From an uncultured Gammaproteobacteria bacterium (GTDB lineage: Bacteria; Patescibacteriota; Microgenomatia; Daviesbacterales; UBA10151): 64,000 bases of DNA. A program made the position numbers and the translations under genes. Location: positions 29 to 64,028 of the forward strand of contig CAYHYM010000003.1 of assembly GCA_964360965.1 (NCBI GenBank). Direction: 5' to 3'. This document shows positions 3,562 through 52,662 of the stretch, piece by piece (the stretch's first letter is position 1; each line of letters opens with the position of its first letter). Below the pieces are notes generated by a model that saw nothing but the letters and a program-made list of their open reading frames with translations, ran no database searches and had not been told where the DNA came from.

Positions 3562-4310
3562 ACACCCTTGGGGTGTATTCGTATTGACACCTGCGGATAT
3601 TTGAGATATGCTAGGCTCAAATGCCTTCCAGAATTTTCCCCTTTGTAAATGGGCAGTATTACCACATCTATAATAGGGGTGTAGAAAAAAGAACTATCTT
3701 TGAAAAAAGCTGGGACTACTCAAGACTTAAAAAGACAATGCAGTATTATCAGCTTCTCGGCCCTAAGCCAAGGCTATCTAAATTCCTATTAGGCTCAATT
3801 CTCAAGCCAGATACCAATAAGAAGATCGTGGACATTATTTGCTACTGTTTAATGCCAAATCATTTTCACTTTCTTATAAAACAGTTAAAAGAGGGTGGAA
3901 TTACAGAATTTGTTAGTAAATTAAGTAACAGTTATACCAAATATTACAATGTAAAATATAAACGGGTTGGACCCTTACTACAGGGAGAATTTAAAGCTGT
4001 ATTAGTAGAATCTGATGAACAATTGCTACATGTTTCTCGCTATATTCATTTGAACCCGATTGCTTCTTTTTTGGTAAAAGACTTAAATCTCTATGAATGG
4101 TCTTCTTATAAAGAATATACTAATAACCATAAAGGTATTTGTAATACGGAAGAAATTATGGGCTTTTTTAAAGATAGCTCCTCTTATCAAAAATTTTGTT
4201 TGGACCAAGTTGAATATGCCCAAAAACTGGAACTAATTAAGCATCAATTATTGGAAGAAGAATAATACACCCTTGGGGTGTATTTGTATTGACACCTGCG
4301 GATTTTTGAG
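3562..4310 (+). mobile_element. IS200/IS605-like minimal element. A Y1 transposase gene is flanked by ~44-bp imperfect direct repeats, each starting with a small hairpin.
   Basis: Left copy 3562..3606 ACACCCTTGGGGTGTATTCGTATTGACACCTGCGGATATTTGAGA and right copy 4267..4310 ACACCCTTGGGGTGTATTTGTATTGACACCTGCGGATTTTTGAG. Each begins with the palindrome ACACCC-TTG-GGGTGT. Subterminal hairpins in the same orientation at both ends are the hallmark of IS200-family ends. Confidence 0.6.
3621..4265 (+). CDS. tnpA: HUH Y1 tyrosine transposase (IS200-like / RAYT-like TnpA)
   Basis: 214 aa. HuH motif CYCLMPNHFHFLIK, catalytic Tyr region LHVSRYIHLNP, N-terminal YHIYNRG typical of PF01797 Y1_Tnp. It is longer than canonical 140-aa IS200 TnpA, closer to the RAYT-like subgroup. 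Confidence 0.75.
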   Translation: MPSRIFPFVNGQYYHIYNRGVEKRTIFEKSWDYSRLKKTMQYYQLLGPKPRLSKFLLGSILKPDTNKKIVDIICYCLMPNHFHFLIKQLKEGGITEFVSKLSNSYTKYYNVKYKRVGPLLQGEFKAVLVESDEQLLHVSRYIHLNPIASFLVKDLNLYEWSSYKEYTNNHKGICNTEEIMGFFKDSSSYQKFCLDQVEYAQKLELIKHQLLEEE

Positions 4311-4343
4311 AAAATTTGACCGGCACCCTTGAAGGGAAGATAA

Positions 4344-8042: not shown

Positions 8043-10934
8043 GTGAAATTGCTGCCCCTTTTAATTTTTCTATTCACTTTTATTACGCTTCCCTCCCCAA
8101 TCTATGCTGTCACCATTGCTGAGCAAACCCAAAACTTTGGAAATCAGCTAAATGTCTGGCAGGCAATTCAAGAGCTGGGCAGCTTGCTTGATGGCAAGGC
8201 CGGTTCCTTTACTTTCAGGGTACGTACCACTAAGACCAACCTTGAAATGTTTGATTATACTGCTCAAAATACCAAGATTTATGATAAGGACACAAACACC
8301 AAAGTTGCCAACGGCTGCCACACAGGTTCTGCCTCTGATCCTTTGGGTGGCTTGACCTTTACCACAGCCGGGGTACCTGTTGGTTTTGAAGACGTGACAA
8401 TTGATTTTTCATCCTGTAACTCTTACTCCTTCACTCAAGGACATAAATATTTAATTATTATAAGTAATGCCAATATGGCACAATTTGGTGGAAGTTTAAT
8501 CTATTTTGCAGCCGCTGCTTACGGGTCAAGCAGCACTGACCATTTTAATGGTGGGGGTTTAAGGTATGCTTTTGATAATAAATTTTGCAACCCAATCACT
8601 TACCAATGGAATTCTTCAATAAGTAATGCAAATGAAGACCAATGTAATATTTGGACCACACCCAAAGATGACCTTTATTTTATTTTAGCCAACACCTCCC
8701 CTCCTCCCAAAACCCCGGTTATTTTTATACCCGGGATAGGGGGGTCTGAATTTAAAGCAGGGCAGGATATTATCTGGGCAGATCAGGATGATGGACATGG
8801 AGGAAAGTTTTCTCATGCTTATACATCTGGGGAGAAAATTTGGGTCAATGAGGGTAAGGCGGCCGAACTGGGGGAGGATGATTATTTTGATGTATTAAGA
8901 TTAAAATCTGATGGAGTAACTTCTGAGGCTTCTCTAAGTTTAACAGGAGATCTGACTTCTTTTGGTTATGGGGATATTGATTCATTTTTTACCGGATTGG
9001 GGTATGAGAAAGGTAAAAATTTCTTTGTTTTTCCCTATGATTGGAGAAAGGATGTGAGAGTTACCAAAGATAGTTTGGATGCCTTAATTGAGGAGGCAAA
9101 AACCAAATCAGGACAAACTAAGGTTAATCTAGTGGCCCATTCCATGGGAGGCTTGGTAGCCAGATATTATATTGCTGATTCAGGGAGAGCTTCTAAGGTT
9201 AATAAGCTAATTTCTATGGGAGTTCCCCATTTGGGAGCAACAAAAGCTTTGAAAACCCTAATGTATGGAGATGAAATAAAGAAGGATGTATTTGGTATAT
9301 TTGCACTAGGAATCCCATCAAGTGAGGTCAAAGACGTATTCCAAAATCTCCCCAGCGCATTCCAGCTTTTACCTTCCAAAAAATTTTATGATTTCTATGA
9401 CAACTCTGCTCAGAAACCTTTCCCGTTTAGCGACGAAAGAGATATTGACAGTAACAAAGTTACTGGAGCACTAAACTTTATTCAAATCAAAGGATTGCTG
9501 GAAAATTTAATACACAATATGACAGTATTTGACTTTGGAGAACAACTTCATAATTTAGCTGATCCATTACTTAATCAATCTTCAACAGTCAAGTTGTATA
9601 ACATAGCTGGTACCAGCCAACCTACTTTAGGACAAATCAGGGAAACGTGGTTAATACAGTGGCCTATTAATTTAATCTCTATAAGAGACGAGGTCTTTAT
9701 TAACGGAGACAATACAGTGCCGCTCTATAGTGCCTCACTTAAAAGTGATTCTTTAGATTTTTCAGGCAGTGCAACTATTTATTATGTGGAACAAAAACAC
9801 AGTGATCTGGTTTCAAAAGATGGCACAGCTATGCAAACAGTAAAGTCTATTTTAGAAGAATCTGATTTACCTGTTGAGGTTAAATCCGAAAAGATTGATT
9901 TGGAAGGACAGCATGTGTCTTTGGATGATGGGGAATTGGAATTGTATGATGATGAAGGAAAACATACTGGCATAAAAGATGACGGAGAAATTGAAACCAA
10001 TATTCCTGAAACTTTTTATTCAACATCAGGTAAAACTAAACATGCTTTTGTTAAAAAGAAAGCTAAAAAAGTGAAAGTGAGGGCTACTCGAAAAAAGAAA
10101 ACCTCATCAGATCCCAAAACAACCAATCTAAAAATTAGAAGTTATAAACAGGATAAGGTTTCTAAAACCACAATTTATAGAGATGTCTTAATTGCTGAAA
10201 CAGCCAAAGTTGAATTTGATCTGGATCCAGCAATTGATACTTCTCCAACCCTTGCATTATTTCCTGATTCCACCAAATCTGACAGCACAAATATTAATCT
10301 CACTAGTGAGGTATCAGGTGGTCCTGCCTTAGACCAAACATCACCTTCTACAAAGATAGAACTATCAGGAAGTAAAGATTCATTAGGCAAGTTTATATCC
10401 TCTGCCACAGTAACCTTAAGTTCCTCTGATTCTGAATCGGGAATTTTAAAAACAGAATATAGTTTGGATAATGGTAAGACTGTTCAAACGTACAGTAATC
10501 CATTCACTGTCTCAACTCCTGGTAAAACTACTTTACAGGTAAAGTCTATTGATAAATTAGGTAATGAGGAAATACCACAAGAAAAGGTCATAGAGATTGC
10601 TTCATCAACTTCTAGCTCATCTTCTTCCAGCTCATCTGGCAATAACTCATCAAGCACTGCACAATCCACCTCTGAGGAGTCCGTTCCGGTCACCTCCGAG
10701 GTGTTACGAAGTGACTCCTCGGAGGTGGATAGCACAAGCTCATCACAAGATATCCTGGGACTTAGCACCCAAAATCCAGTTTCATCTGCTCAATTAAAAC
10801 CTCTAACTAACAACCAACCTAATCTACTAACAAGCAGTATGTTGATCTTAACAATGTTTATGGCCCAAAGCGGAATAATTCTTTTGTCATCCTTAAGATC
10901 AGTTCTTTCTTTTCTTAAACCAACCCCAAAATAG
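8043..10934 (+). CDS. Large secreted, C-terminally membrane-anchored alpha/beta-hydrolase (lipase/LCAT-like) with Ser-rich low-complexity linker
   Basis: 963 aa, GTG start. Signal peptide MKLLPLLIFLFTFITLPSPIYA, PVIFIPGIGGSEF oxyanion region, nucleophile elbow VAHSMGGLVARYY, Lys-rich segment, poly-Ser stretch and C-terminal hydrophobic anchor LLTSSMLILTMFMAQSGIILLSSL. Confidence 0.6.
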   Translation: MKLLPLLIFLFTFITLPSPIYAVTIAEQTQNFGNQLNVWQAIQELGSLLDGKAGSFTFRVRTTKTNLEMFDYTAQNTKIYDKDTNTKVANGCHTGSASDPLGGLTFTTAGVPVGFEDVTIDFSSCNSYSFTQGHKYLIIISNANMAQFGGSLIYFAAAAYGSSSTDHFNGGGLRYAFDNKFCNPITYQWNSSISNANEDQCNIWTTPKDDLYFILANTSPPPKTPVIFIPGIGGSEFKAGQDIIWADQDDGHGGKFSHAYTSGEKIWVNEGKAAELGEDDYFDVLRLKSDGVTSEASLSLTGDLTSFGYGDIDSFFTGLGYEKGKNFFVFPYDWRKDVRVTKDSLDALIEEAKTKSGQTKVNLVAHSMGGLVARYYIADSGRASKVNKLISMGVPHLGATKALKTLMYGDEIKKDVFGIFALGIPSSEVKDVFQNLPSAFQLLPSKKFYDFYDNSAQKPFPFSDERDIDSNKVTGALNFIQIKGLLENLIHNMTVFDFGEQLHNLADPLLNQSSTVKLYNIAGTSQPTLGQIRETWLIQWPINLISIRDEVFINGDNTVPLYSASLKSDSLDFSGSATIYYVEQKHSDLVSKDGTAMQTVKSILEESDLPVEVKSEKIDLEGQHVSLDDGELELYDDEGKHTGIKDDGEIETNIPETFYSTSGKTKHAFVKKKAKKVKVRATRKKKTSSDPKTTNLKIRSYKQDKVSKTTIYRDVLIAETAKVEFDLDPAIDTSPTLALFPDSTKSDSTNINLTSEVSGGPALDQTSPSTKIELSGSKDSLGKFISSATVTLSSSDSESGILKTEYSLDNGKTVQTYSNPFTVSTPGKTTLQVKSIDKLGNEEIPQEKVIEIASSTSSSSSSSSSGNNSSSTAQSTSEESVPVTSEVLRSDSSEVDSTSSSQDILGLSTQNPVSSAQLKPLTNNQPNLLTSSMLILTMFMAQSGIILLSSLRSVLSFLKPTPK
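10691..10728. repeat. Family-A GC-rich palindromic module (CACCTCCGAGG-N15-CCTCGGAGGTG) inserted in-frame in the Ser-rich region of the lipase-like CDS
   Basis: 11-bp stem, 15-nt loop. Encodes VTSEVLRSDSSEVDS. The same arm sequences recur at 37955, 40767, 49149 and 54015. Confidence 0.6.
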
Positions 10935-14557: not shown

Positions 14558-17161
14558 GTGGAAAAGGCATATACAAAAACCGCTGAGCAAGTTATTAAAG
14601 ATCTAAAAACTGATCTTAAAGACGGGCTGACATCAGCCCAAGCCCAAAAAAGATTAGCACAATATGGCCCAAATGTCTTAAAAGAAGAGATCGGTAAAAA
14701 TCCTTTGCTGATTTTATTTTCCCAGTTCAGAAGCTTTTTGGTGATTATTTTAATAGTTGCCTCCATCATCTCATATCTGTTGGGTCATAGCCTTGACGCC
14801 TTGATGATTTTGGCCATTGTCGCAATTAATGCTGTCTTAGGCTTTATTCAAGAATATCGGGCAGAGGAATCCATCAAACATCTGAAAAAACTGGTCACTG
14901 CCAATGTCCAGGTGATCAGAGATGGCCGGTTAGTAGAGATTCCCCACTTTCAACTGGTACCAGGAGATTTGGTAATTGTAAGTGACGGCCAAAAAGTCCC
15001 GGCTGATTTAAGAGTAACACAATCCATCTATCTGCACCTTAATGAAGCACCACTGACCGGAGAATCAATTCCTGTCACCAAAGTAACAGACAGCTTACCC
15101 CCCAACACCAACATAGCTGATCAAAAAAATATGCTTTTTGCAGGCACCTCAGTCTCTTCTGGCAAGGGTATGGGGATAGTTGTATCAACAGCTATGAAAA
15201 CAGAAATTGGCCAAATTGCCCATCTGGTATCACAAGAGGTGGAACCAGAAACCCCCCTCAAACAAAAGCTGGATCGTTTGGGCAAACTTTTGGGCAGAAT
15301 TGTTTTAATCGTCGCCTCCTTAATTGCCCTGGAACAAATAATATTGGGTGAACCAGTTATTGAAGCTCTCATCTCATCAGTGGCCTTGGCAGTAGCAGCC
15401 ATACCAGAAGGCTTGCCTGCCATTGTCACCATCTCTTTGGCTTTGGGCACCAAAAGGCTTCTTAAACAACGTGCCTTAATCAGAAATTTGCCTGCCTCAG
15501 AAACCTTAGGATCAACAGAGGTAATATGTGTAGACAAAACTGGCACCCTAACAGAAGGAGAAATGTCTGTGAGAGAGATTTACGGCGCAAATATTCAAAA
15601 AATTCTCACTGTGGGGATACTTTCAAGCAATGCCAGAAAAAATAAAGACAGAATTATTGGAGATGCCACTGAGGCAGCTTTAATACAAAAGGCCATAGAT
15701 TCAGGACTGGATCAGGATCAATTGGATAAAAAATTTCCTCGAGTACAAGAAATACCCTTTTCTTCAGACAGAAAAATGATGACCACCATCTGCAAAGAGG
15801 ATAATCAATACCGGGTGACCAGCAAAGGTGCAACCGAAGTCATCTTGGACAAATGTTCACATATTGAGGAGAATGGCCAGGTTATACCATTAACTGAGGA
15901 GAAAAAAGAACAGATTTTAAAAGTTAATGACCAAATGGCCCAAGATGCCTTGAGGATTTTGGCTTTTGCCGAGAAGCGCATACACCTTGCAGGTGAAGAA
16001 AATGCAGTTACACCTGCGAGGTGGAAAGAAGAAGAGATAGAAAAAGATCTGATCTTTCTAGGCCTTCAGGGAATGATGGATCCACCAAGGGAAGGTGTTA
16101 AAGAGGCTATTGAGGTTTGTCAAAGAAAAGCAGGAATTAAAGTAATAATGATCACCGGAGATCACCTGTTAACTGCCCAATCCATTGCCAAAGAAATTGG
16201 TATCAAGGGGGAGAGCATCAGCGGTCAAGAGCTTGACAATCTTTCTGAAGAAGAATTTGTCAAAAAAGTTCAGGAAATTAACATCTATGCCAGGGTCAGC
16301 CCCACTCATAAAATTAGGATCATCAAGGCCCTAAAAGCCCGCGGTCATCAGGTGGCCATGACAGGTGATGGGGTCAATGATGCTCCGGCCTTAAAGGCTG
16401 CTGATACTGGGGTGGCCATGGGGGTTACGGGCACCGACGTGGCCAAAGATGCCTCAGATATAATTTTACTGGATGATAATTTCACCACCATTGTGCAAGC
16501 CATAAAAGAAGGAAGGACAATTTTTGACAACATCAGAAAATTTGTTAATTACCTGTTATCTTCAAACATTATGGAAATAATGGTGATATCTTTGGCTGTA
16601 ATTTTGGGTGGGGGACATTTGCCGCTTTTACCTATTCATCTTTTATGGATCAATCTGGTCACTGATGGGCTGCCGGCCCTGGCTTTGGGAGTTGATCCGC
16701 CCAGAGCAGACATCATGAGTTTACCGCCCCAAAATTTTAGGCAGCAGATATTGGGTGGTAGATCTTTAGGGCCTTTAACTGCCGTCAGTGTACTTTTAAC
16801 CATAGCTATCCTTGCTATTTTCTTTATCTATCAAAAAGATCCAATTTATGAACAAACCATGGTTTTTACATCCATTGTCTTTTATGAAATGTTAAGAATT
16901 ATTGCCATAAGGTCTGAATATAAACTGCCGTTTTTCTCAAATAAATTCTTAATCCTTGCTATAGCTGGATCATTAGCACTGCATCTTGTGATTCTTTATC
17001 TACCATTCTCTTTTGCAGGAGTAACATTGCAAGAATTATTTAAAGTTCAGCCGTTAAATCTTTTTGACTGGGTACTACTGCTTGGAATTGGCATCTTCCT
17101 TCTATTTATCATGAGAATCTTGGTCATTACACCTGTATTTAATTTTTTAAAAAAGCCTTGA
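14558..17161 (+). CDS. P-type cation-transporting ATPase, type IIA (Ca2+/SERCA-like)
   Basis: 867 aa. DKTGTLT, PEGLPA, TGDGVNDAPAL, 10 TM segments. Carries an in-frame palindromic insertion at 15983..16023. Confidence 0.9.
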   Translation: MEKAYTKTAEQVIKDLKTDLKDGLTSAQAQKRLAQYGPNVLKEEIGKNPLLILFSQFRSFLVIILIVASIISYLLGHSLDALMILAIVAINAVLGFIQEYRAEESIKHLKKLVTANVQVIRDGRLVEIPHFQLVPGDLVIVSDGQKVPADLRVTQSIYLHLNEAPLTGESIPVTKVTDSLPPNTNIADQKNMLFAGTSVSSGKGMGIVVSTAMKTEIGQIAHLVSQEVEPETPLKQKLDRLGKLLGRIVLIVASLIALEQIILGEPVIEALISSVALAVAAIPEGLPAIVTISLALGTKRLLKQRALIRNLPASETLGSTEVICVDKTGTLTEGEMSVREIYGANIQKILTVGILSSNARKNKDRIIGDATEAALIQKAIDSGLDQDQLDKKFPRVQEIPFSSDRKMMTTICKEDNQYRVTSKGATEVILDKCSHIEENGQVIPLTEEKKEQILKVNDQMAQDALRILAFAEKRIHLAGEENAVTPARWKEEEIEKDLIFLGLQGMMDPPREGVKEAIEVCQRKAGIKVIMITGDHLLTAQSIAKEIGIKGESISGQELDNLSEEEFVKKVQEINIYARVSPTHKIRIIKALKARGHQVAMTGDGVNDAPALKAADTGVAMGVTGTDVAKDASDIILLDDNFTTIVQAIKEGRTIFDNIRKFVNYLLSSNIMEIMVISLAVILGGGHLPLLPIHLLWINLVTDGLPALALGVDPPRADIMSLPPQNFRQQILGGRSLGPLTAVSVLLTIAILAIFFIYQKDPIYEQTMVFTSIVFYEMLRIIAIRSEYKLPFFSNKFLILAIAGSLALHLVILYLPFSFAGVTLQELFKVQPLNLFDWVLLLGIGIFLLFIMRILVITPVFNFLKKP
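15983..16023. repeat. Family-B 41-bp hairpin module (CACCTYGCAGGTG-AAGAAAATGCAGTTA-CACCTGCGAGGTG) inserted in-frame in the P-type ATPase CDS
   Basis: 13-bp perfect stem with 15-nt loop. 35 nt are identical to the intergenic copy at 40403..40443. Encodes RIHLAGEENAVTPARW in the cytoplasmic domain. Confidence 0.7.
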
Positions 17162-17332: not shown

Positions 17333-17544
17333 GATTTTTTAAACCATCGCCTCATTAACCCCTTGAACTTATCATGGTCAACTATTAATTCAGAAAATAC
17401 AGCAAAAGGTAATGCCACAAAAAAGGCAATCCAAAATATCCTAAAATCGATTGGTTCCCCAGTAACCAAAAAAATGGCAATTAAATCCTCTATTACCCCT
17501 AAAGCAAGTCCCACTATAAAGAATTCTAGGAATCTATTTAACAT
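17329..17544 (-). CDS. Small 2-TM hypothetical membrane protein
   Basis: 71 aa, hydrophobic, tandem with the next membrane ORF. Confidence 0.35.
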   Translation of the reverse strand: MLNRFLEFFIVGLALGVIEDLIAIFLVTGEPIDFRIFWIAFFVALPFAVFSELIVDHDKFKGLMRRWFKKS

Positions 17545-18112: not shown

Positions 18113-19157
18113 GGTGTGCCTCCGCAGCCGGGCTTTGTTTTTTCCGCTTCAATAAATAATTATATGCAGCCAAGGCAGCCCTTACCCCATCACCTGCAGA
18201 AATATTATTTTGTTTATAAGGATCATTGGTGACGTCCCCACAAGCAAAAACCCCGGGATGGGAGGTGGTGGCATGTTGAAAATTCACCATGATTTGTCCA
18301 TGGTCATCAATTTGTACCAAATCTTTAACCATCTCAGAGTTAGGAACTGAGCCTATTTCCACAAATATCCCGCCCACTTCCAAAGTCTTTTCTTCTGCAC
18401 TTCCACTCCCGATGTGGGATTGAGCTGACACATCGGGAGTGTGTATTCGGTATTTGAGCCCGGTTACCAATGCTTCCCCCACCACTTCCACAGTTTGGGC
18501 ATTAAGAATAATTTGTCTAAGTTTGGGGTTTTTCTTGATTTCCTCAATAGTTGCCGGATCAGCTCTTAAGATCTCACCCCTCTCCATCAGGTAAATTTCT
18601 GATGCATAGGGAAAAAGGTCCTGTACTGCCTCGAGTCCGGCATTTCCTCCACCAACAACTGCCACCTTTTTATCGCGAAAAAGGGGAGCATCGCATGTTG
18701 AGCAATATACCACACCCCTACCTTCAAACTTATCCTCCCCTGGAATGCCTAGTTTCCTACGTCTGGCACCTGAGGCCACAATGACGGTTTTCCCCTGATA
18801 TACTTGTCCTGAGCCTGTCGAAGGATCTGTAGTCACCTCAAAATCACAGATCCTCCCAGCAGACACCTCGGATGGTGTGGACTCAGTAGACCTGCATGCA
18901 ACAGATTTTACCTTCACCACCTTTTCTGTTTTTATATCAACAATATCTGGATAAGCTCTAACATGAGCTTCCAGTTTTTTAGCTAAATTGAGTCCAGAAA
19001 TATGTACCTCTCCTATCCAGTTTTGAATATCATCTGAGACAATTGACTGCCCGCCAAAAGATTCTGTAATAAGGAGAGTTTTCATCTGCTTTCTTGCCGC
19101 ATAAACAGCAGCAGCACAAGCTGCAGGTCCTCCACCAATGATAATTACGTCATACAT
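18102..19157 (-). CDS. trxB: Thioredoxin-disulfide reductase carrying two in-frame palindromic insertions
   Basis: 351 aa. FAD site IIGGGPAACAAAVYAAR, redox-active YCSTCD, NAD(P) site VAVVGGGNAGLE. It is ~40 aa longer than typical TrxB because of insertions at 18405..18440 and 18801..18824. Confidence 0.8.
   Translation of the reverse strand: MYDVIIIGGGPAACAAAVYAARKQMKTLLITESFGGQSIVSDDIQNWIGEVHISGLNLAKKLEAHVRAYPDIVDIKTEKVVKVKSVACRSTESTPSEVSAGRICDFEVTTDPSTGSGQVYQGKTVIVASGARRRKLGIPGEDKFEGRGVVYCSTCDAPLFRDKKVAVVGGGNAGLEAVQDLFPYASEIYLMERGEILRADPATIEEIKKNPKLRQIILNAQTVEVVGEALVTGLKYRIHTPDVSAQSHIGSGSAEEKTLEVGGIFVEIGSVPNSEMVKDLVQIDDHGQIMVNFQHATTSHPGVFACGDVTNDPYKQNNISAGDGVRAALAAYNYLLKRKKQSPAAEAHHGA
18405..18440. 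repeat. Family-D hairpin module (ACTCCCGATGTG-N12-CACATCGGGAGT) in-frame in trxB
   Basis: 12-bp perfect stem. Encodes SAQSHIGSGSAEE. A near-identical copy at 20492..20528 sits in an unrelated aldolase gene and encodes HTQSHIGSGTTKA. Confidence 0.7.
18801..18824. repeat. Family-E module (TACTTGTMCTGAGCYTGTCGAAG) in-frame in trxB
   Basis: Encodes DPSTGSGQV. Related copies lie at 24398..24429 (cop[11 protein letters not shown]) and 47781..47806 (DUF3048 protein, STSSVQV). Confidence 0.6.
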
Positions 19158-19159
19158 AC

Positions 19160-20119
19160 TTATACCTTAACAGGAGTAAGTGGAGGTTGTCCAGATAAAA
19201 CCGCAATTATATTTTTGGCTGCCAATTCTCCCATGGCTGAACGGGCTTCTATTGTTGCAGAAGCAATATGAGGAGTTAGAATCACATTTTCTAAATCCAC
19301 CATACCAGCAGCCCATTTAGGTTCTGTTTCACCCACATCTAAAGCTGATCCGGCAATGACTTTATTTTTCAAGGCTTCGACAAGCTCAGCCTCATCAACC
19401 ACAGGACCACGGGAAGTATTGACCAGATAGGCCGTGGATTTCATCATCTTCAGATGCTCGGCGTTAATTAAATGTCTTGTAGAATCAAGTAGGGGGACGT
19501 GAATTGAAACCACATCTGATGTGGAAAGTAGTTCTTCAGGTGTTGCTTTAAAGACTGCTCCCACCTTAGTTTCAAAATCCGGATTTTGTTTAACATCGTA
19601 ATAGATCACATTCATACCAAAACTTTTCCCAATCTCAGCCACCCTTGAACCAATCCTGCCGAGTCCTAAAACCCCCAAGGTTTTATCTTTAAGTTCCATC
19701 CCCAACATGACTTCCGGACCAAACTGCGCAGACTCTGTAAGAGCCAATTTATGGGCTTCAACAACTCTTCTTGAGATTGCCATTATCAGTGCAAATGTAT
19801 GTTCAGCAACAGCCTCTGTTAACACATCCGGGGTGTTGGTGACCACAATACTTCGCGACAAAAGGGCGGGGAGGTCTAAATTATCTGTACCTACAGCGTA
19901 ATTGGCAACTATTTTTAAATTAGCCCCAGCAGCGTTAATAAACTCCTGATCCACCTTATCAGTCAACATGCTCAACACCCCATCTGCACCCTGTATAAAA
20001 TTCAAAAGTTCCTGTCTTTCCAAAGGCCGATCATGTGGTGAAACCACCACTTCATACCCAGCATCCTGCAACATCTTTATCCCACTGCCGGGAATTTTTC
20101 TGGTAACTACAACTTTCAT
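19160..20119 (-). CDS. D-isomer-specific 2-hydroxyacid dehydrogenase (glycerate/phosphoglycerate dehydrogenase-like)
   Basis: 319 aa. NAD-binding GLGRIGSRVAEIGKSFGMNVIYYD, catalytic His region. SD GGAGGTG lies 7 nt upstream. Confidence 0.85.
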   Translation of the reverse strand: MKVVVTRKIPGSGIKMLQDAGYEVVVSPHDRPLERQELLNFIQGADGVLSMLTDKVDQEFINAAGANLKIVANYAVGTDNLDLPALLSRSIVVTNTPDVLTEAVAEHTFALIMAISRRVVEAHKLALTESAQFGPEVMLGMELKDKTLGVLGLGRIGSRVAEIGKSFGMNVIYYDVKQNPDFETKVGAVFKATPEELLSTSDVVSIHVPLLDSTRHLINAEHLKMMKSTAYLVNTSRGPVVDEAELVEALKNKVIAGSALDVGETEPKWAAGMVDLENVILTPHIASATIEARSAMGELAAKNIIAVLSGQPPLTPVKV

Positions 20120-20143
20120 CTTCTTCCACCTCCGAGGTGTTTT

Positions 20144-20989
20144 CTAATCCATCATAACAACTTCTGTTAAAACTTTAAATCTTTCTGGTAAGGTTTTTGT
20201 TAAAAACTGTTGTTTTTCTTCCCCTTGCAAACTGCAAACCTCCTGCCACAGCGCCCTTCCTGCTAAAAAGCCTTTGGCCCCTGCTTTTATTGCAACTTTC
20301 AAATTTTCTTTAAAAACCTCAAAACTATCTCCTCCTGTAAGTAAAATCCATGGAGTATCACCTACCATATTGGTAATTTCCACGCATACATCCAAATCAC
20401 CCGGATATTCCAACTTCCACACATCTGGAACTATCCTAACCTCCTTAAAAATTTTCACTGACTCGATCACCAACCCTGCTTTAGTGGTCCCACTCCCGAT
20501 GTGAGATTGAGTATGCACATCGGGAGTGTACGTGACAATTTCTAAAAAAAATGGGAAATCATGAATCTTACAATCCTCTAAAACTTTCCTGGCAGTTTCC
20601 AGCTGTTTTTTTGCACTTTCTAAGTTTGGATTAAAATAAATCAAAAGTTTGGCCCCAGAAGCCCCCAGCTCTTTTAACTGCCCAACTATGTATTCCAACT
20701 CCGTAATTCTTTCTCCAGCCTGGTTAACGTATCCGCTTTTTTCTAAAGGTAATAAAAATGGTTTTGTTTGGCAAGCTTCTTTACATGCCTCTATGCCATA
20801 GTGTTCATCAATCAACAGTCCTGAAACTTGACCTGCTAAAGCATTGATAATTTCTGATTTCAGGGAAACAACAGTCTCATCAGAAACACTATCAGCATCC
20901 TGTGGATTTATTAATTTCTTAAATGATCCCCTATGGTCCAAAGCCAACATCAAAAATTTGCCATCAGATGTAAACTTACTTAAATCCAT
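20144..20989 (-). CDS. Class I aldolase of the tagatose-bisphosphate aldolase (LacD)/DhnA-like family
   Basis: 281 aa. N-terminal GKFLMLALDHRGSFKKL resembles LacD ALAFDQRG. Carries Family-D insertion 20492..20528. Confidence 0.55.
   Translation of the reverse strand: MDLSKFTSDGKFLMLALDHRGSFKKLINPQDADSVSDETVVSLKSEIINALAGQVSGLLIDEHYGIEACKEACQTKPFLLPLEKSGYVNQAGERITELEYIVGQLKELGASGAKLLIYFNPNLESAKKQLETARKVLEDCKIHDFPFFLEIVTYTPDVHTQSHIGSGTTKAGLVIESVKIFKEVRIVPDVWKLEYPGDLDVCVEITNMVGDTPWILLTGGDSFEVFKENLKVAIKAGAKGFLAGRALWQEVCSLQGEEKQQFLTKTLPERFKVLTEVVMMD
20492..20528. repeat. Family-D hairpin module copy, in-frame in the aldolase gene
   Basis: ACTCCCGATGTG-AGATTGAGTATG-CACATCGGGAGTG. Same stem as 18405..18440; the loop differs at 4 positions. 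Confidence 0.7.
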
Positions 20990-36805: not shown

Positions 36806-38160
36806 TTAGTTAATCTAACATCCACTCTTTCCATATCTCTGGGAAAAAGCGAAGCTTGCCTGATATTAGAAAGGTTTAAGACGTGCATGGTAATTCTTTC
36901 TAAGCCGAAAGAGAAACCTCCTTCTGACGGCATGCCAAATTTAAAAGCCATCAAATACATCTCAAAATCTTTAGGATCCATCCCATGTGCTTTAATTGAT
37001 TCCACTAATTGTTTATAGTCATTAATTCTTTGAGAACCACTCATTATTTCAACCCCTCTAAATAGAAGGTCATAGCTTAAGGAATAATCCGGATCTTTTG
37101 GATCAGGTTTGGTATAAAAAGGTTTTGATTGGGTTGGAAAATGAGTAATGGTCACAAAATCGCAGTGATGTTTTTCTTTTGCCCATTTGCAGATATCGAT
37201 CTCATCCTGCGGAGTTAAATCTTTTTCTTTCCTGTTATCCCTTCCAAACTCTTTTAATATAACTTCCTGGGCTTCCCTAAGTGTCAATCTCGGAATATCT
37301 CCGAAAGCTATCTGTTCCATTCCAAGTTCTTTTAAAATATCACCACATCCATTTTCAGTTTGCTTTAATGTCTCCACTGCAACTTTTTCTAAAAGATCCA
37401 AAAGATCTTCAAACTCCACAAAACCTATCTCACAATCCATTTGAGTAATTTCCGATAAATGTCTTGTTGTCACAGAAGGTTCTGCTCTATATGCTTTTGT
37501 GATTGTAAAAACTCTTTCAAGGGATGGAACCAACATTTGTTTGTAAAGTTGCGGGCTTTGGGTCAAAAAGGCTTTATGACCATAATAGTCAACTTTAAAC
37601 ACTTGTGCTCCTCCTTCTGTAGATGAGGCGACAATGGTTGGAACAACAATCTCAGTGCAACCAATTTCTTTTGCAGCCTTTCTGAATCCTTCCAAAATAC
37701 TCGCTTGAACTCTAAATATTGCTTTAACTTTTGGATGGCGCAAAGTGAGAGAGCGAAAATCCAAAAGGGTTGGTAGTTGTAAATCCAAATCTTTTCCTCC
37801 CATATCAAACGGTAGCTCTTCTGCTTTTGACAAGATTTCCATGGAATCTGCAGATATTTCTATTTCACCTGTGGGAATATTTTCATTGACCAGATTTTCT
37901 GGCCGCTTGTTAACTTTTCCAGTTATACAAACTACATCTTGGGAGTGTAGGCTACCCACCTCGAAGGTGGGCTCTGACTCCTTCGAGGTAGATTTTGTCT
38001 GTTGTGATACTACCACTTGTATTAATCCACTTCTATCTAAGATATCCAAAAATAAAATCTTGCCATGGTCACGGCGGGTTTGCACCCACCCACAAACCTC
38101 AACAGATTCCCCAACTTTTTTACTACAATCTAGAATGAGAGTACGTTCCATAAATGTCAT
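36802..38160 (-). CDS. aspS: Aspartyl-tRNA synthetase, archaeal/eukaryotic type (class IIb)
   Basis: 452 aa. N-terminal OB fold, class II motifs, motif 3 GGFSFGLERITMHVL. Carries a Family-A in-frame module at 37955..37989. Confidence 0.85.
   Translation of the reverse strand: MTFMERTLILDCSKKVGESVEVCGWVQTRRDHGKILFLDILDRSGLIQVVVSQQTKSTSKESEPTFEVGSLHSQDVVCITGKVNKRPENLVNENIPTGEIEISADSMEILSKAEELPFDMGGKDLDLQLPTLLDFRSLTLRHPKVKAIFRVQASILEGFRKAAKEIGCTEIVVPTIVASSTEGGAQVFKVDYYGHKAFLTQSPQLYKQMLVPSLERVFTITKAYRAEPSVTTRHLSEITQMDCEIGFVEFEDLLDLLEKVAVETLKQTENGCGDILKELGMEQIAFGDIPRLTLREAQEVILKEFGRDNRKEKDLTPQDEIDICKWAKEKHHCDFVTITHFPTQSKPFYTKPDPKDPDYSLSYDLLFRGVEIMSGSQRINDYKQLVESIKAHGMDPKDFEMYLMAFKFGMPSEGGFSFGLERITMHVLNLSNIRQASLFPRDMERVDVRLTK
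37955..37989. repeat. Family-A palindromic module in-frame in the aspS anticodon-binding domain
   Basis: CCCACCT-CGA-AGGTGGG plus outer arms ACCTCGAAGG/CCTTCGAGGT. Encodes STSKESEPTFEVGS. Confidence 0.6.
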
Positions 38161-38813: not shown

Positions 38814-40394
38814 TCAAACAATGCGAATATCTTTAACTTTAAGTTGTAATTTTTCATTACCATTGTAGCTATCTATTTCTGGTGTATAGGCTAAATCAAT
38901 GGACTGCCCATTAGTTAAGGTATTTGCCAGATCACCCATGCCAAAAGCTATGGCATCTAGACCATCTGCCTTAAATTTTAAATGCTTCCCTTCCCCCACA
39001 GTCCTAATATCTGAAATTTGAACAGCATCTGTGGTAAAAATGGGTCTGGGGTTACCAAAACCAAATGGCTCAAATTTTTTTAAATCATCCACCAAATCTT
39101 TGGTTAATTTATTAACCTTTATTTCCGCCTCAATTTCCAAAACCTGTTCCACTTCATCAGGTAAAGTTATCACCAGTTCCTCTAATCTTTTTTTGAACCC
39201 ATCAATATTTTTAGTTAAAATAGAAAATCCGGCAGCACGGGGATGTCCTCCCACATCTACTAAAATATCAGCATGTTTCCTGATCACCTCCACAATATTA
39301 ATCCCGTTAATTGATCTTGCAGATCCTTTGGATATCTCTTTCCCTAATGATATGGCAATGGTTGGACGATAATATTCTTGAGTAATCCTTCCGGCAATCA
39401 AACCAATAATGCCGGGCGACCAATCCTTACTGCTTAATACATGAATATTATTTTGGGTATCAATTAGTAATTTTGCTTGCTCTACAGCATCTATAGTCAT
39501 TTTTTGCCTCTCAGTGTTTGTCTTAGATAGTAGTTTTGCCAACCCCTTGGCTTTTGCTGGGTCTTTAGTGCATAAAAGTCTTAAAGAATCTATGGCATGC
39601 TCTAACCTTCCCATGGCATTTAATCTTGGACCCAAAATATGACCAATTTCATACGAAGAAATCTCATCTAAACTTATTCCAGATTCGTTAATAAGAGCAA
39701 GCAGTCCAATATTTGTGGTTCTTTGTAAAACCTTTAAACCTTCAGAAACAAAAGCTCTATTTAATCCAACCAGCGGCATTAAATCACAAACTGTTGCCAT
39801 TGCCACAAATTGTAATAATTCATGAGCCAATTCCTTTTTAATAACTTCTCTTACCAGACACCAGGCTACCGCTGCCCCACACATCTTGGTTGAATAAACA
39901 ATTGCATATGCATCAGGTTTCTTCTCCAAAGGGATATGATGATCTGTAATAATCAAATCAAGTCCTATTTCTTTGGCAAACTTTGCTTGAGGTATGGCAA
40001 CTATGCCGTTGTCTACAGTAATCACAACAGTTGCTCCAGAATCCCTAGCAAATTCCAAACCCAATTTTGATAACCCGTATCCTTCTTTTTCTCTATGAGG
40101 AATATAGGGTAAGGCTTTTGCCCCCATAGATGTCAGGGCTTTATAAAGTATTGCGCATCCACAGATCCCGTCCACATCATAATCTCCGTAAACTATTATT
40201 AATTCATTATTTTTTATAGCTTTATTAATTCTTGCCTGCGCTTTCCCAATACCTGAAATATTTAAATCTTTTTCATAGTCTGAAATTTTGGGGTTAAAAA
40301 ATTGTTCTTTTTCTTTAGGAGTTTTTATTCCACGGTTGATTAGCAACTGCTCAGTAATATCATCAGACCTTTTTGGTAATATCTTCCACTTCAT
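38814..40394 (-). CDS. recJ: Single-stranded-DNA-specific exonuclease RecJ
   Basis: 526 aa. DHH motifs IVYGDYDVDGICG and ITDHH, DHHA1 GGHPRAAGF. Confidence 0.9.
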   Translation of the reverse strand: MKWKILPKRSDDITEQLLINRGIKTPKEKEQFFNPKISDYEKDLNISGIGKAQARINKAIKNNELIIVYGDYDVDGICGCAILYKALTSMGAKALPYIPHREKEGYGLSKLGLEFARDSGATVVITVDNGIVAIPQAKFAKEIGLDLIITDHHIPLEKKPDAYAIVYSTKMCGAAVAWCLVREVIKKELAHELLQFVAMATVCDLMPLVGLNRAFVSEGLKVLQRTTNIGLLALINESGISLDEISSYEIGHILGPRLNAMGRLEHAIDSLRLLCTKDPAKAKGLAKLLSKTNTERQKMTIDAVEQAKLLIDTQNNIHVLSSKDWSPGIIGLIAGRITQEYYRPTIAISLGKEISKGSARSINGINIVEVIRKHADILVDVGGHPRAAGFSILTKNIDGFKKRLEELVITLPDEVEQVLEIEAEIKVNKLTKDLVDDLKKFEPFGFGNPRPIFTTDAVQISDIRTVGEGKHLKFKADGLDAIAFGMGDLANTLTNGQSIDLAYTPEIDSYNGNEKLQLKVKDIRIV

Positions 40395-40402
40395 TTGTAT
40401 TT

Positions 40403-40443
40403 CACCTCGCAGGTGAAGAAAATGCAGTTACACCTGCGAGGTG
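40403..40443. repeat. Family-B 41-bp hairpin module, intergenic copy (5' UTR of recJ, upstream of cca)
   Basis: CACCTCGCAGGTG-AAGAAAATGCAGTTA-CACCTGCGAGGTG. On the recJ mRNA the 3' arm GAGGTG lies 8 nt before the recJ ATG, so the SD is sequestered in the stem. Identical over 35 nt to 15983..16023. Confidence 0.7.
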
Positions 40444-40493
40444 TATTATATGGCAAATTGTACCATACTATGTCAGGGTGTAGAATTAAGCTT

Positions 40494-41906
40494 ATGAACT
40501 ACTCATTACCTAACGAGGTTAAAAATATTTTAGAAAAGTTTAAAAAAGCCAAATTTCAAATTTATATTGTGGGAGGAGCTGTCCGTGATCTTTTAATGGA
40601 AAAAGGGGTTAAAGATTGGGATTTCACCACTGATGCCAAACCGGAGGAGATTATAAAATTATTTCCGGAAGGTTTTTACGATAACAAATTTGGAACAGTA
40701 GGAATTCCTATAGAAGTGGGAAAAGACACTTTGGATGGTGGCAGGCTGAAGCGAAGCGTAATCCATGACTCCTCCGAGGTGGAAGTATATGAAATCACCA
40801 CCATGCGAAAGGAAGGAGTATACAAGGATTACAGACACCCAGACAAAGTGGCATGGACAGATAAAATTGAACAAGATCTAGGCAGACGTGACTTTACTGT
40901 TAATGCCATTGCCCTTTCCGTCATCCCGACAAATGTCGGGATCCAATTAACAGATCCATTTAATGGCCAGCAGGATATGAAGGATAAGATAATCAAAGCC
41001 GTGGGTGATCCTGGCAAAAGATTTCAAGAAGATGCTCTTCGTTTAATAAGAGCAATCAGAATTGCCACCCAGTTAGAATTTGACATAGATGAAAAAACTT
41101 ATTCTGCCATCAAAAAAAATGCTCATCTTTTAAAAGAAGTTTCCCGGGAAAGAATTCGTGATGAGCTCTTTAAAATACTTGCATCTGGCAATCCTCACTC
41201 CGGTATAGTGAAATTGAGAGAAACAGGCTTACTACAAATAATCTTACCCGAACTTGAAAGATGTTTTGGCATTGTCCAGGAAGGACCCAAACATGATAGA
41301 GTTTATGATATTGGAAACCATTCCCTGCTCACTCTTCAACATACACCGTCTACTGATCCGTTAACCAGATTTGCAGCACTTTTGCATGATATTGGCAAAC
41401 CGGACACTGTTAACACTGCTCAAGATGGCAATGTCACTTTTTACCATCATGATGTGATTGGTGGAAAATTGATTTTAAAAATTGGGAAAAAGTTTAATTT
41501 ATCGAAAAAGCAAAAAGATAAATTATACCGCTTAGTGAGATGGCACTTATTTACTGTTGATGAAAATCAAACAGACTCTGCCATCAGAAGATTTATAAAA
41601 AATGTGGGGTTAGATTATATAGAAGATATGATGGCATTACGTATTGGAGACAGATTGGGAGGAGGGACCCAAAAAGCTGTCTCTTGGAGAATGGAAAAAT
41701 TCGCTGATCGAATAAAACAAGTCCTTAAAAAACCATTCTCTATTTCTGATCTAAAAGTAAATGGCCATGATGTAATGGAAGTTTTAAAAATCAAACCAGG
41801 CCCCAAGGTTGGTGAAATCCTCCAAAAACTTTTTGAAGAAGTCCTAGAAGATTCATCTAAAAATAATCGGAATTATCTTATTGATAGAATGAAGGAACTT
41901 GGTTAG
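40494..41906 (+). CDS. cca: CCA-adding tRNA nucleotidyltransferase with HD domain
   Basis: Start at MNYSLPNEVKNILEKFKKAKFQIYIVGGAVRDLLM; the track ORF starts at 40395 inside the hairpin. PolyA_pol head GGAVRD, D..D, HD domain LLHDIGKP. Carries a Family-A/C composite in-frame module at 40748..40782 (GRLKRSVIHDSSEVEV). Confidence 0.85.
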   Translation: MNYSLPNEVKNILEKFKKAKFQIYIVGGAVRDLLMEKGVKDWDFTTDAKPEEIIKLFPEGFYDNKFGTVGIPIEVGKDTLDGGRLKRSVIHDSSEVEVYEITTMRKEGVYKDYRHPDKVAWTDKIEQDLGRRDFTVNAIALSVIPTNVGIQLTDPFNGQQDMKDKIIKAVGDPGKRFQEDALRLIRAIRIATQLEFDIDEKTYSAIKKNAHLLKEVSRERIRDELFKILASGNPHSGIVKLRETGLLQIILPELERCFGIVQEGPKHDRVYDIGNHSLLTLQHTPSTDPLTRFAALLHDIGKPDTVNTAQDGNVTFYHHDVIGGKLILKIGKKFNLSKKQKDKLYRLVRWHLFTVDENQTDSAIRRFIKNVGLDYIEDMMALRIGDRLGGGTQKAVSWRMEKFADRIKQVLKKPFSISDLKVNGHDVMEVLKIKPGPKVGEILQKLFEEVLEDSSKNNRNYLIDRMKELG

Positions 41907-44590: not shown

Positions 44591-45474
44591 ATTATCTTGG
44601 GTCCCAAAGGAACTTGATCCTGCGGGTCATCAATAAAAAAATAAAATACCGGACCTTGTCTCGGACCGGATGCCAATCCTAAATAATGCATCACCTCGGG
44701 TGATCCGCCTAAGTGTTTGCCGGTCCACTCGGCAGGTCCGGCATCCCCCACCACCGCCACCACAGCCTGTCCTGTTTTGGCATTTACCACCAGCATTTTT
44801 CTAAATTTAAAAAAATCTCTATATTTGTCAACATTCTCGGCAAAACCCGGAGCAAGGAAGGTTTGAACTGCCAAATAATATTTTTCCCTCATTTTGTCTT
44901 TTTCGGAAAATTCTGATTCTGTCGGGGTAAAATATCCCCAGGCTCCCAGAGCGGGCGCAATGCCGGATGATCCATACATGGCCCATTCAGTAAAATTTTG
45001 CGCATGTTTGTATAAATTATCACCGGGAAAACGATAAAGATGCTGCTCTCCTCCAATAATACCATAACTTCTGTTAAGCCTTATTCCCTCCAAAAAGGCA
45101 CTCACTCTCAAGTTAAAATTTTTTGAAAGAATATCCTCCACTTCTTTTTCCTCATCATTTGTTAAAGATTTAGCATCTTTGGGGATTCCAAAAAGTTGCC
45201 GGGCAACTTTTTGGTTTTCATCAATTTGTGCTGTAATGTGCTGGTTGGGTAAAAGTAAAGGAGGCTGGGATAAATAACCTACCGGTTGAGCAAGAAGCAT
45301 CAAAGACCCCAGTGATGAAACTGCCAGCTGTCTTACGGGGATGCTTTTAGTTAACCAGTCAAGAGAACTTTTGTGTTTTTCCCAAACTTTATTTTGGATA
45401 GCCCGATGACGACCGGTCCATCTTTTCTTTAAATATTCATAATGTGGCCTTTTAGATATAAATTTCCTTGTCAT
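44587..45474 (-). CDS. Exported RlpA-like double-psi beta-barrel (DPBB/3D-like) domain protein, putative peptidoglycan-binding/lytic
   Basis: 295 aa, N-terminal signal anchor. C-terminal MLVVNAKTGQAVVAVVGDAGPAEW...GLASGPRQGPVFYFF resembles the RlpA DPBB core (V.V.D.GP...). Confidence 0.4.
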   Translation of the reverse strand: MTRKFISKRPHYEYLKKRWTGRHRAIQNKVWEKHKSSLDWLTKSIPVRQLAVSSLGSLMLLAQPVGYLSQPPLLLPNQHITAQIDENQKVARQLFGIPKDAKSLTNDEEKEVEDILSKNFNLRVSAFLEGIRLNRSYGIIGGEQHLYRFPGDNLYKHAQNFTEWAMYGSSGIAPALGAWGYFTPTESEFSEKDKMREKYYLAVQTFLAPGFAENVDKYRDFFKFRKMLVVNAKTGQAVVAVVGDAGPAEWTGKHLGGSPEVMHYLGLASGPRQGPVFYFFIDDPQDQVPLGPKII

Positions 45475-49129: not shown

Positions 49130-49175
49130 TCAATCAAGTAAAATTTAACACCTCGGAGGTGGACTCTAACTCCTA

Positions 49176-52375: not shown

Positions 52376-52662
52376 TGCCTAGGAAGAAGGATGATTGCTA
52401 CGTTCAGTTTACATGAACGTAGAGGAAAGTCCAGACAGCAAAGAGCAGGGTGTCCGGCGTAAGACGGAGGTCGTAAGATCCAGTTAGAGCAACAGTGACG
52501 AACCGAGGTAATGCTCGGATGAAACGGGCAATCCTCCCCGCTGCAATCCTAGAATCGGTCAGGTTGCTCGCCTGATGACCGGAGTAAGGAGCATTAGATA
52601 AATGATCATCAATCCTGACTAAATCGGGATGAACAGAATCTGGCTTACTCTCATCCTAGGCA
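52376..52662 (+). ncRNA. rnpB: RNase P RNA (bacterial type, compact)
   Basis: P3 hairpin 52398..52422, then GAGGAAAGTCCAGAC...AGAGCAGGGTG... (P4 5' strand, cf. GAGGAAAGTCCGGGC...CAGGGTGCC). Internal AGAGCAACAGTGACGAA (cf. GTGCAACAGAGAG). 3' ACAGAATCTGGCTTAC (P4 3' strand, cf. ACAGAACCCGGCTTA) then P1 closing TCATCCTAGGCA pairing with TGCCTAGG..ATGA at the 5' end. The 3' end overlaps the stop of the convergent AI-2E gene. Confidence 0.8.

Follow-up and report, generated by a model that had tools for sequence, protein, structure and literature searches.

Miniature hairpin repeats embedded in genes of Candidatus Daviesbacteria are constrained in stem and loop

A 64,000-nucleotide stretch of contig CAYHYM010000003.1 (assembly GCA_964360965.1; hereafter the window) carries two near-identical 41-nt hairpins, one inside a P-type Ca2+-ATPase gene (H1, 15983–16023) and one between the divergent genes for RecJ and a CCA-adding enzyme (H2, 40403–40443). 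Both belong to LOOP1, a family of miniature hairpin repeats that is specific to the lineage Candidatus Daviesbacteria. Constraint on this family acts at the nucleic-acid level, on the complementarity of the stem and on the sequence of the loop, and something in the cell probably still reads the hairpin. The window has a G+C content of 38%; the best homologues of its ATPase, CCA enzyme and transposase-like gene all come from Candidatus Daviesbacteria (Microgenomates, Candidate Phyla Radiation (CPR)), and recJ contigs identical to the window's occur in Hainich groundwater metagenomes.

H1 (CACCTTGCAGGTG AAGAAAATGCAGTTA CACCTGCGAGGTG, plus strand) and H2 (CACCTCGCAGGTG AAGAAAATGCAGTTA CACCTGCGAGGTG, with the loop in sense on the plus strand) are identical at 40 of 41 positions, and their likeness, also apparent as a repeat family within the window, ends exactly at the hairpin borders. 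An earlier note on this DNA had singled out the near-identical pair, and the comparison bears it out; the 35 identical nucleotides that it gave are the longest unbroken run and not the total, and the perfect 13-bp stem that it described is that of H2, whereas H1 has 12 Watson-Crick pairs and one wobble. They differ only at arm position 6, where H1 has T and H2 has C, so that the C-G pair of H2 is a U.G wobble in H1. Each copy encloses a 15-nt loop and is predicted to fold as an isolated 13-bp stem-loop, at -23.4 kcal/mol (z = -5.4) for H1 and -26.4 kcal/mol (z = -6.0) for H2. With up to two mismatches allowed, the arm motif occurs 15 times in the window against 0.33 expected; by this excess and the fold z-scores, the hairpins are not due to chance. 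A covariance model built from 25 LOOP1 copies matches the window exactly twice, at H2 (70.3 bits) and H1 (64.9 bits). At the gathering threshold, Rfam recovered only RNase P RNA and a tRNA from the window and no family matching the hairpin, and a permissive scan of 40340–40520 returned just chance microRNA-like matches of at most 17 bits and no family of leader hairpins that sequester a Shine-Dalgarno (SD) sequence. Neither hairpin is followed by the T run that, with a GC-rich stem, marks an intrinsic terminator, and the one terminator-like match, a minus-strand sub-stem of 7 bp, has the hairpin loop itself for a 'tail'. Readings as a CRISPR array, a terminator or an attC site were dropped for want of an array, a U tract and an R/L box pattern, respectively.

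LOOP1 consists of two 13-nt arms of the form CACC-N5-GGTG, inverted around a conserved 15-nt loop, RARAAAATGCRRTTA. Like a REP (repetitive extragenic palindromic) doublet, it comprises two palindromes in inverted orientation that fold into one hairpin. In GTDB species genomes, a search with only the loop core and arm ends fixed and six positions free in each arm brought up 20 copies, all in Daviesbacteria-type metagenome-assembled genomes (MAGs) and one to three detected per MAG. A looser metagenome pattern, demanding only CAC and GTG at the arm ends, found 26 stretches, again all of Daviesbacteria type. The count of further copies for which the earlier note had called therefore favours a repeat. 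The total stands at 30 distinct copies at about 12 genomic sites, ten of them intragenic, as counted in MAGs, metagenome stretches and the 64-kb window. The hosts are the Ca-ATPase, the YchF GTPase, a CysRS-like gene, a PMT/TPR membrane protein (two sites), mevalonate kinase, an ATPase-winged helix-turn-helix (wHTH) regulator, a SpoU/TrmH methyltransferase, RadA and one further open reading frame (ORF; L035), to which a prepilin leader and the recJ/CCA spacer are added. Within genes the element is translated in two frames, as HLxGEKNAxTPxRW or TSEVKKMRLHLGGV; the third frame meets a TGA at the stem-loop junction. The flanks show a bias towards CA at -5/-4, counted from the base that opens the hairpin, and towards A two bases past its end. 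'Binchicken' third-party annotation (TPA) MAG records (L026, L028, L029, L031, L033-L037, L039, L041 and L044) are titled 'uncultured Gammaproteobacteria bacterium'; they carry Daviesbacteria-type genes, G+C and orthologous hairpin sites, and the titles look like placeholder taxonomy.

Stems change in sequence and keep their pairing. Perfect stems are found in 23 of the 30 distinct 41-mers, in 13 stem variants, and in a 25-sequence alignment 97.8% of paired cells are complementary, against 88.6% in shuffles (0 of 500 as high) and 39–57% in controls with slid partners. Five of the six free stem pairs in this alignment have changed on both sides. Compensatory series can be followed in place: one mevalonate kinase pair is T-A in L028 and L042, C.A in L035 and C-G in L043, and one wHTH regulator pair is A-U in L041, G.U in L039 and G-C in L026. 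Stem variants go with the site and not with the genome. CACC and GGTG arm ends are unchanged in 29 of 30 copies. No variation is seen at eight loop positions, and the invariant positions of the loop do not differ between the two reading frames. Because the same nucleotides are thus kept in two frames, this conservation cannot be put down to selection on the peptide. Third codon positions were compared among four ATPase genes with 59–67% protein identity, in which 9–13 of the 13 third positions within the hairpin are identical (69–100%), against fractions of 0.43–0.46 for third positions at identical residues elsewhere in the genes and 0.30–0.38 at four-fold sites. Over the whole hairpin, identity among ATPase orthologues is 28–38 of 41.

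The ATPase gene (14558–17161, plus strand; assigned by Pfam, orthologue alignment and alignment to Listeria Ca-ATPase LMCA1, PDB 6ZHF) reads through H1 in codon phase 0, in frame as the earlier note had stated, and yields the peptide HLAGEENAVTPARW. In the LMCA1 alignment this segment is a variable loop of the nucleotide-binding domain. Most of 95 aligned orthologues are without it and have a short loop instead, for example LAIAYG-SSE-KEENLTFLGL; the segment is not conserved native sequence, and the suggestion of a repeated, insertion-type element holds. A related peptide occupies the same loop in nine sequences including the query (for example HLAGGKNATTPARW, HLGGEKNAITPPRW, HPGGEKNTITPPGW, HSGGEKNTITPPEW and HLEGGKNETTPSRW), and shortened remnants occur in P0009 (EHLGGEKE) and P0003 (HLTPPRW). 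The hairpins of L003 (CACCTCGCAGGTG / GAAAAAATGCGACTA / CACCTGCGAGGTG), L004 (CACTCCGGGGGTG / AAAAAAATACGATTA / CACCCCCGGAGTG) and L005 (CACCTCGAAGGTG / GAAAAAATGAGACTA / CACCTTCGAGGTG) all have perfect 13-bp stems that differ in sequence, and the loop of the L003 copy differs from that of H1 at 5 of 15 positions. Paired amino-acid changes in the ATPase copies (A..A to G..P, L..R to P..G, S..E, E..S) restore base pairing. Other orthologues have unlike palindrome-type peptides at this loop, VIPAQAGIQ.., VIASEAKQS.. and VILSASE.. among them (P0001, P0046, P0058, P0062, P0067, P0072, P0073 and P0080). The CCA-enzyme loop FGTVGI..EITTMR (window about 40700–40790) is a second such place, where, of the orthologues shown, about half have hairpin peptides of several types, and the window's own CCA gene bears a remnant, DSSEV, from CTCCTCCGAGGTG at 40769. 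Unrelated inserts at the ATPase and CCA-enzyme loops read VIPAQAGIQ.., VIASEAKQS..DRHVANAPRDDG, VILSASE.. and AISYQLSDKKQKKSDDRRL..; insertions are tolerated at both loops, which are hotspots for them.

Both window sites are old and vertically inherited, because the ATPase copy is common to orthologues of only 59–67% protein identity and the recJ/CCA site is also filled in L072 and L074. H1 and H2 have a common stem centre, CGC, and an identical loop, whereas the orthologous copies at the H2 site have CCG-type stems. Since the two window copies agree at 40 of 41 positions and orthologous ATPase copies at 28–35, we infer a recent copy-to-copy exchange within the genome, by gene conversion or by re-copying through the transposase-like protein described below, and not a fresh insertion. 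Elsewhere, L040 is closer to L045, in the same genome, than to its own orthologue L044, and the YchF copy L066 (same sample series, same coverage) has the unusual CACCTTGCAGGTG arm in common with H1.

At the ten intragenic sites LOOP1 copies lie in sense, save one flipped variant (L049), although by the sequence either orientation leaves two frames open. For the ATPase, CCA and wHTH sites the GC skew of the sense strand is about -0.12, for the YchF, RadA, TrmH and PMT sites about +0.1; because it takes both signs, orientation follows the gene and not the replication strand, and we rejected a replication-strand account. When the loop is flipped, it reads TAA in the TSEVKKMRLHLGGV frame and VIAFFS in the HLxGEKNAxTPxRW frame, and the TAA may be part of why flips seldom persist. 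The wHTH site of L049 (1229–1303) reads CACCTCCGAGG-CAATT-(flipped hairpin)-TAAAG-CCGGAGGTG, the nested copy bringing its own flanks. With the usual flank consensus around it, this copy points to a 51-nt unit (17 codons), and the nesting also hints at loop inversion by recombination between arms.

At the second window site, recJ (38814–40394, minus strand; DHH, DHHA1 and RecJ_OB domains) starts at ATG 40394. On this strand, arm 40403–40415 ends in GAGGTG, followed by the 8 nt AAATACAA and the recJ ATG; the placement of GAGGTG 8 nt upstream of the start was already in the earlier note and is correct for the minus strand. The geometry recurs in two other species. In L072 the hairpin sits at the same place with its loop flipped, and an upstream open reading frame (uORF) initiated in the loop ends in a TGA overlapping the recJ ATG; in L074 it is oriented as in the window and its loop has a nested insert of 22 nt; and L073 has an empty site. 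In all three occupied genomes (window, L072, L074) the recJ ATG is preceded at 7–8 nt by the arm GAGGTG or GGAGGTG. A promoter-like site for recJ, TCTACA-16-TACAAT with TG (40457–40484, minus strand), is a consensus match whose TACAAT is kept in the window, L072, L073 and L074, the empty site included. Because it lies upstream on the recJ strand and is kept in four genomes, the hairpin is probably within the recJ leader.

On the plus strand, the loop ATG at 40422 is in frame with the CCA-adding-enzyme ORF (40422–41906), which places H2 in the leader region of two divergent genes. Most of 120 CCA homologues start at M[NK][DN]Y[TS]LP, corresponding to the conserved native start ATG 40494 of the window, and in the alignment 97 of 120 have nothing N-terminal to it; a start at the loop ATG is seen only in P0121, the gene call of this genome. 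Calling H2 non-coding, as had been done, is uncertain, its loop ATG being in the CCA frame and the public gene call starting there. A 15-codon uORF (MANCTILCQGVELSL, 40450–40497) begins 6 nt past the hairpin's GAGGTG and its stop codon, TGA, runs into the conserved CCA start (ATGA at 40494); its ATG at 40450 was ruled out as a gene start, the frame being closed.

Both divergent mRNAs would probably carry a hairpin of about -25 kcal/mol at H2. It would bury the recJ SD, GAGGTG, 8 nt before the ATG, and would offer the CCA gene an SD plus an in-frame ATG, so that translation of both should depend on melting. An SD-occluding translational gate at recJ, which the earlier note had raised, is plausible from the geometry. 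Such a gate cannot be the general role of LOOP1, because most family members lie deep within ORFs.

A candidate trans-acting partner is encoded at 3621–4265 (plus strand) by a gene for an HUH/Y1 transposase (Pfam Y1_Tnp, E = 1e-8) resembling REP-associated tyrosine transposases (RAYTs). Across Daviesbacteria its orthologues have 66–90% identity and mostly keep their place between a CobA-like gene and nrdA; the gene is apparently single-copy. It is flanked by 45-nt direct repeats, at 3562–3606 (CACCCTTGGGGTG palindrome, 12-nt spacer, CACCTGCGG) and at 4267–4311 (96% identical, same orientation, plus strand), and this flank design is kept around the orthologues. The palindrome CACC-N5-GGTG occurs 11 times in the window against 0.46 expected: twice in these flanks, seven times in hairpin arms and twice solo. 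In one case only, the flank palindrome of L079, CACCTCGGGGGTG, equals a hairpin arm of another genome, L043. A second RAYT-like gene, beside the ATPase in L003, has unrelated GGGGACGGTCC inverted repeats as flanks, and not every Y1 gene is tied to the hairpins. Many public contigs with the RAYT-like gene are only 1–2 kb long, which suggests that assemblies break around it.

LOOP1 elements entered permissive surface loops of housekeeping genes long ago; on the reading that we put forward, the folded single strand (single-stranded DNA (ssDNA) or mRNA) would still be recognised by a trans-acting factor, for which the conserved RAYT-like enzyme would be the best candidate. We give about an even chance to this sequence-derived proposal of a gene-embedded hairpin family like REP doublets forming hairpins (REPINs), read as a folded single strand, with the RAYT as its likeliest reader and with a local effect at recJ/CCA. 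REP/REPIN-RAYT systems, as in Pseudomonas fluorescens SBW25 and E. coli, have the same two short palindrome units, inverted with a spacer between them, that form a hairpin in ssDNA or mRNA (PMC3116915, PMC3337134, PMC5581495), and their vertical inheritance and long persistence have been described (10.1101/2021.07.10.451892, PMC5581495). Further common points are a conserved HUH/Y1 gene, flanks with the same palindrome type and exchange among copies in one genome; the transposase gene with its palindrome flanks is the strongest of these ties.

Several observations weigh against the proposal. The protein's sole NCBIfam match, REP_Tyr_transpos, scores 47.8 bits against a cut-off of 80. Its flanks are related to the dispersed hairpins and not identical to them, having only the palindrome type and ACACCTGCG in common, and in their direct orientation they are closer to IS200/IS605 ends than to classical RAYT flanks. 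LOOP1 is 41 nt long (perhaps 51 with flanks), against an arm spacing of about 71–110 bp in REP/REPINs; it numbers about 1–3 copies per MAG and 2 in the 64-kb window, against hundreds to >1000 per genome; and 10 of 12 sites lie within long open frames, nearly all the copies being within translated ORFs, whereas REP/REPINs are extragenic. No target-site duplication was seen at LOOP1 ends, such as would be sought in a miniature inverted-repeat transposable element, and the whole element is an inverted repeat; nor was any transposition intermediate or clearly recent new insertion seen. A DNA-level reader alone does not explain the sense-only orientation, and the promoter assignments at recJ/CCA are consensus matches. 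Single stem mismatches comprise four of G.U type and four of A.C type; these intermediates are uninformative as a discriminator, and because of the tie RNA and DNA are not separable as the selected form. Template-switch repair of quasi-palindromes could, moreover, keep stems perfect without selection.

This last process is central to one alternative, that the copies are selfish relics: dead miniature elements in permissive loops, whose stems are maintained by template switching and gene conversion and whose flips are purged because antisense translation is harmful. We regard this as possible though unlikely. The hosts have no functional theme, decayed or part-deleted remnants exist (those of P0009 and P0003, and L029 with 4 mismatches), the ATPase and CCA-enzyme loops gather several unrelated hairpin types, the flipped loop yields TAA in the second frame and VIAFFS in the first, the two mismatch types are equally frequent, and within-genome homogenisation is seen. 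Template switching, however, cannot keep a loop, yet eight loop positions are invariant; third positions in the hairpin are 69–100% identical against about 45% elsewhere, in species with saturated synonymous sites; the arm ends stay CACC and GGTG in 29 of 30 copies though the metagenome search demanded only CAC and GTG; and conversion within genomes would let the family drift between species, whereas the loop is the same in all. A cis-acting mRNA hairpin, with the RAYT irrelevant, is an equally unlikely alternative, in which the hairpin would serve a post-transcriptional regulon of a loop-binding protein or RNase, or the stem would mask a strong internal ribosome-binding site, GGAGGTG-six A-rich bases-ATG; in leaders (recJ, CCA, prepilin) it would be a translational gate that occludes the SD. 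Orientation in sense, tied to the gene and not to the replication strand, speaks for it, as do the order of 5' arm, A-rich spacer and loop ATG, a canonical SD-spacer-start in which CACCTCC resembles an anti-SD; the ATG, kept wherever it is in frame and lost only in ATPase copies (ATA), at which two leader copies (the window CCA gene and the L071 prepilin) have their probable or called start; the arm SD 7–8 nt before the recJ ATG in three species; and predicted folds of -22 to -32 kcal/mol. Against it, ribosomes unwind hairpins within ORFs, the sense strand shows no surplus of wobble intermediates, no Rfam family matches, mevalonate kinase or TrmH fragments from internal starts would be of no use, the ATPase copy is read in a frame that does not contain the ATG, and the CACC-N5-GGTG palindromes around the RAYT gene are left unexplained.

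Two further alternatives carry less weight. The earlier note took the near-identity of the pair as a sign of recent mobility, and a very recent insertion of one window copy would account for the 40/41 identity and the sharp borders at the hairpin ends; this we consider improbable, because both sites are filled in species whose host proteins are 59–76% identical, the recJ/CCA site is empty only in the more distant L073, and the identity reads as homogenisation. Hardly credible is selection of a peptide module, HLAGEKNATTPARW, for protein function, with the hairpin as by-product. The peptide is similar in the nine ATPase sequences and lies in a surface loop, but the same DNA is read in two frames to give unrelated peptides in different hosts, paired amino-acid changes restore base pairing, third codon positions are conserved and one copy is in a leader region. 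We rejected peptide-level selection on the two-frame usage and the kept third positions.

LOOP1 sits within a wider superfamily. About 457 kb of Daviesbacteria DNA contain 70 distinct hairpins whose stems pair perfectly over 11 bp or more, 43 of them beginning with CAC and ending with GTG; other loops in the superfamily are AGYCAAAGCCCA, AGTCCGTTCGGCCA and that of a window pair. Of the non-LOOP1 hairpins examined, 20 of 21 lie in long ORFs. The density is about one per 8–20 kb, and a rough extrapolation gives tens to about 100 per genome. In the window, two overlapping hairpins with CACCTC..GAGGTG arms and other loops (10661–10727, plus strand) lie in the Ser-rich tail of an LCAT-like ORF. The pair CACTCCCGATGTG-12 nt-CACATCGGGAGTG occurs on the minus strand at 18404–18441, in frame in a TrxR-like ORF (peptide HTPDVSAQSHIGSG), and at 20491–20528, in a DeoC-like ORF (peptide YTPDVHTQSHIGSG), with identical stems and loops that differ at 4 of 12 positions; the DeoC orthologue of L003 has an unlike hairpin (17341–17390) at about the same gene position (offset 467 against 461 nt). 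Minus-strand hairpins also lie in the OB domain of an Asp/Asn-tRNA synthetase ORF (37957–37990, loop family AGYCAAAGCCCA) and in the MiaA ORF (54015–54071). The loop of the MiaA hairpin bears a nested 22-nt motif, CCCGCTTCGCAGCGAGGCGAGC, also nested in the loop of the L074 recJ/CCA hairpin (about 2889–2951); it looks like a still smaller element aiming at hairpin loops.

Solo CACCTC[CG]GAGGTG palindromes occur in short intergenic gaps of the window (20127–20139 and 49149–49161), the first with GGAGGTG 7 nt before the ATG of a minus-strand gene (19160–20119). Perfect 12–13-bp AT-rich hairpins in the SecF-like (45188–45214) and SecD (46166–46200) ORFs are unrelated to the CAC..GTG family. A broad pattern, CACCTNNNAGGTG-N(8-30)-CACCTNNNAGGTG, gave 20 matches on viral contigs, mostly direct repeats of operator-like palindromes in unrelated phages, and was set aside. 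The window's bacterial class A RNase P RNA (52379–52663) is only 285 nt long (model positions 1–367, 125 bits), shortened as might be expected in a reduced CPR genome.

Known in-gene and hairpin elements resemble LOOP1 in part. Rickettsia palindromic elements (RPEs; Ogata et al. 2000, as given in PMC10969869), of about 150 bp and encoding a conserved peptide in Alphaproteobacteria, are likewise palindromes in frame in unrelated housekeeping genes, translated as surface peptides and kept at orthologous sites. LOOP1 has such in-frame palindromes and differs from the 100–150-bp RPE consensus of Rickettsia in its 41 nt and its occurrence on Daviesbacteria-type contigs only, and from RPEs in its two frames, strict stem covariation, loop conserved beyond synonymous expectation and candidate cognate transposase. 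IS200/IS605 ends and palindrome-associated transposable elements (PATEs) likewise have a Y1 HUH gene between similar sub-terminal hairpins in direct orientation, as at 3562–4311, and strand-specific ssDNA-hairpin chemistry; the gene here is apparently single-copy, syntenic, highly conserved and apparently domesticated, and the dispersed hairpins have symmetric 13-bp stems with a conserved loop, unlike imperfect palindromes beside a cleavage tetranucleotide. With fourU and ROSE RNA thermometers H2 has in common an SD (that of recJ) in the 3' arm of a stable hairpin a few nt before the start codon; it differs in having no thermometer-type mismatch or bulge, in a stem of about -25 kcal/mol and in that the element also lies deep within ORFs. 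Very small dispersed repeats (SDRs) of heterocystous cyanobacteria are mentioned in PMC3116915. They are tiny mobile hairpin repeats of tens of nucleotides, nested and occasionally in genes, reportedly described by Elhai et al. (Genome Research, 2008); they are mainly intergenic and differ from LOOP1 in lineage and sequences, and are not known to show long-term in-gene covariation. A literature search on CPR together with RAYT or palindromic insertions found no earlier description.

Short palindromic repeats are usually held to be extragenic, the classic exception being the RPEs, which are usually treated as tolerated junk. LOOP1 is a smaller element in CPR ORFs and yet constrained, with a covarying stem, a loop kept in two frames and beyond synonymous expectation, and an orientation tied to the gene. 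Through the hairpins, proteins become longer and vary in length, and gene calls acquire false N-terminal extensions, as in the 494-aa call for the CCA gene. It is a doubtful but possible reading that Daviesbacteria maintain a REPIN-like hairpin population in coding sequence as functional single-strand signals, read by a domesticated RAYT or an RNA-binding factor, and a comparably speculative one that the 41-nt SD-spacer-ATG/anti-SD module, on landing in a leader (recJ, CCA, prepilin), could serve there as a ribosome-binding site that is portable and masks itself. Were the constraint due to a RAYT, REPIN-RAYT biology would reach CPR bacteria and coding DNA; were it due to RNA, it would mark a cis-regulatory layer in organisms whose regulation is almost unknown. 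Either an in-gene REPIN-RAYT system or a regulon would then operate in ultra-small CPR genomes with almost no intergenic space.

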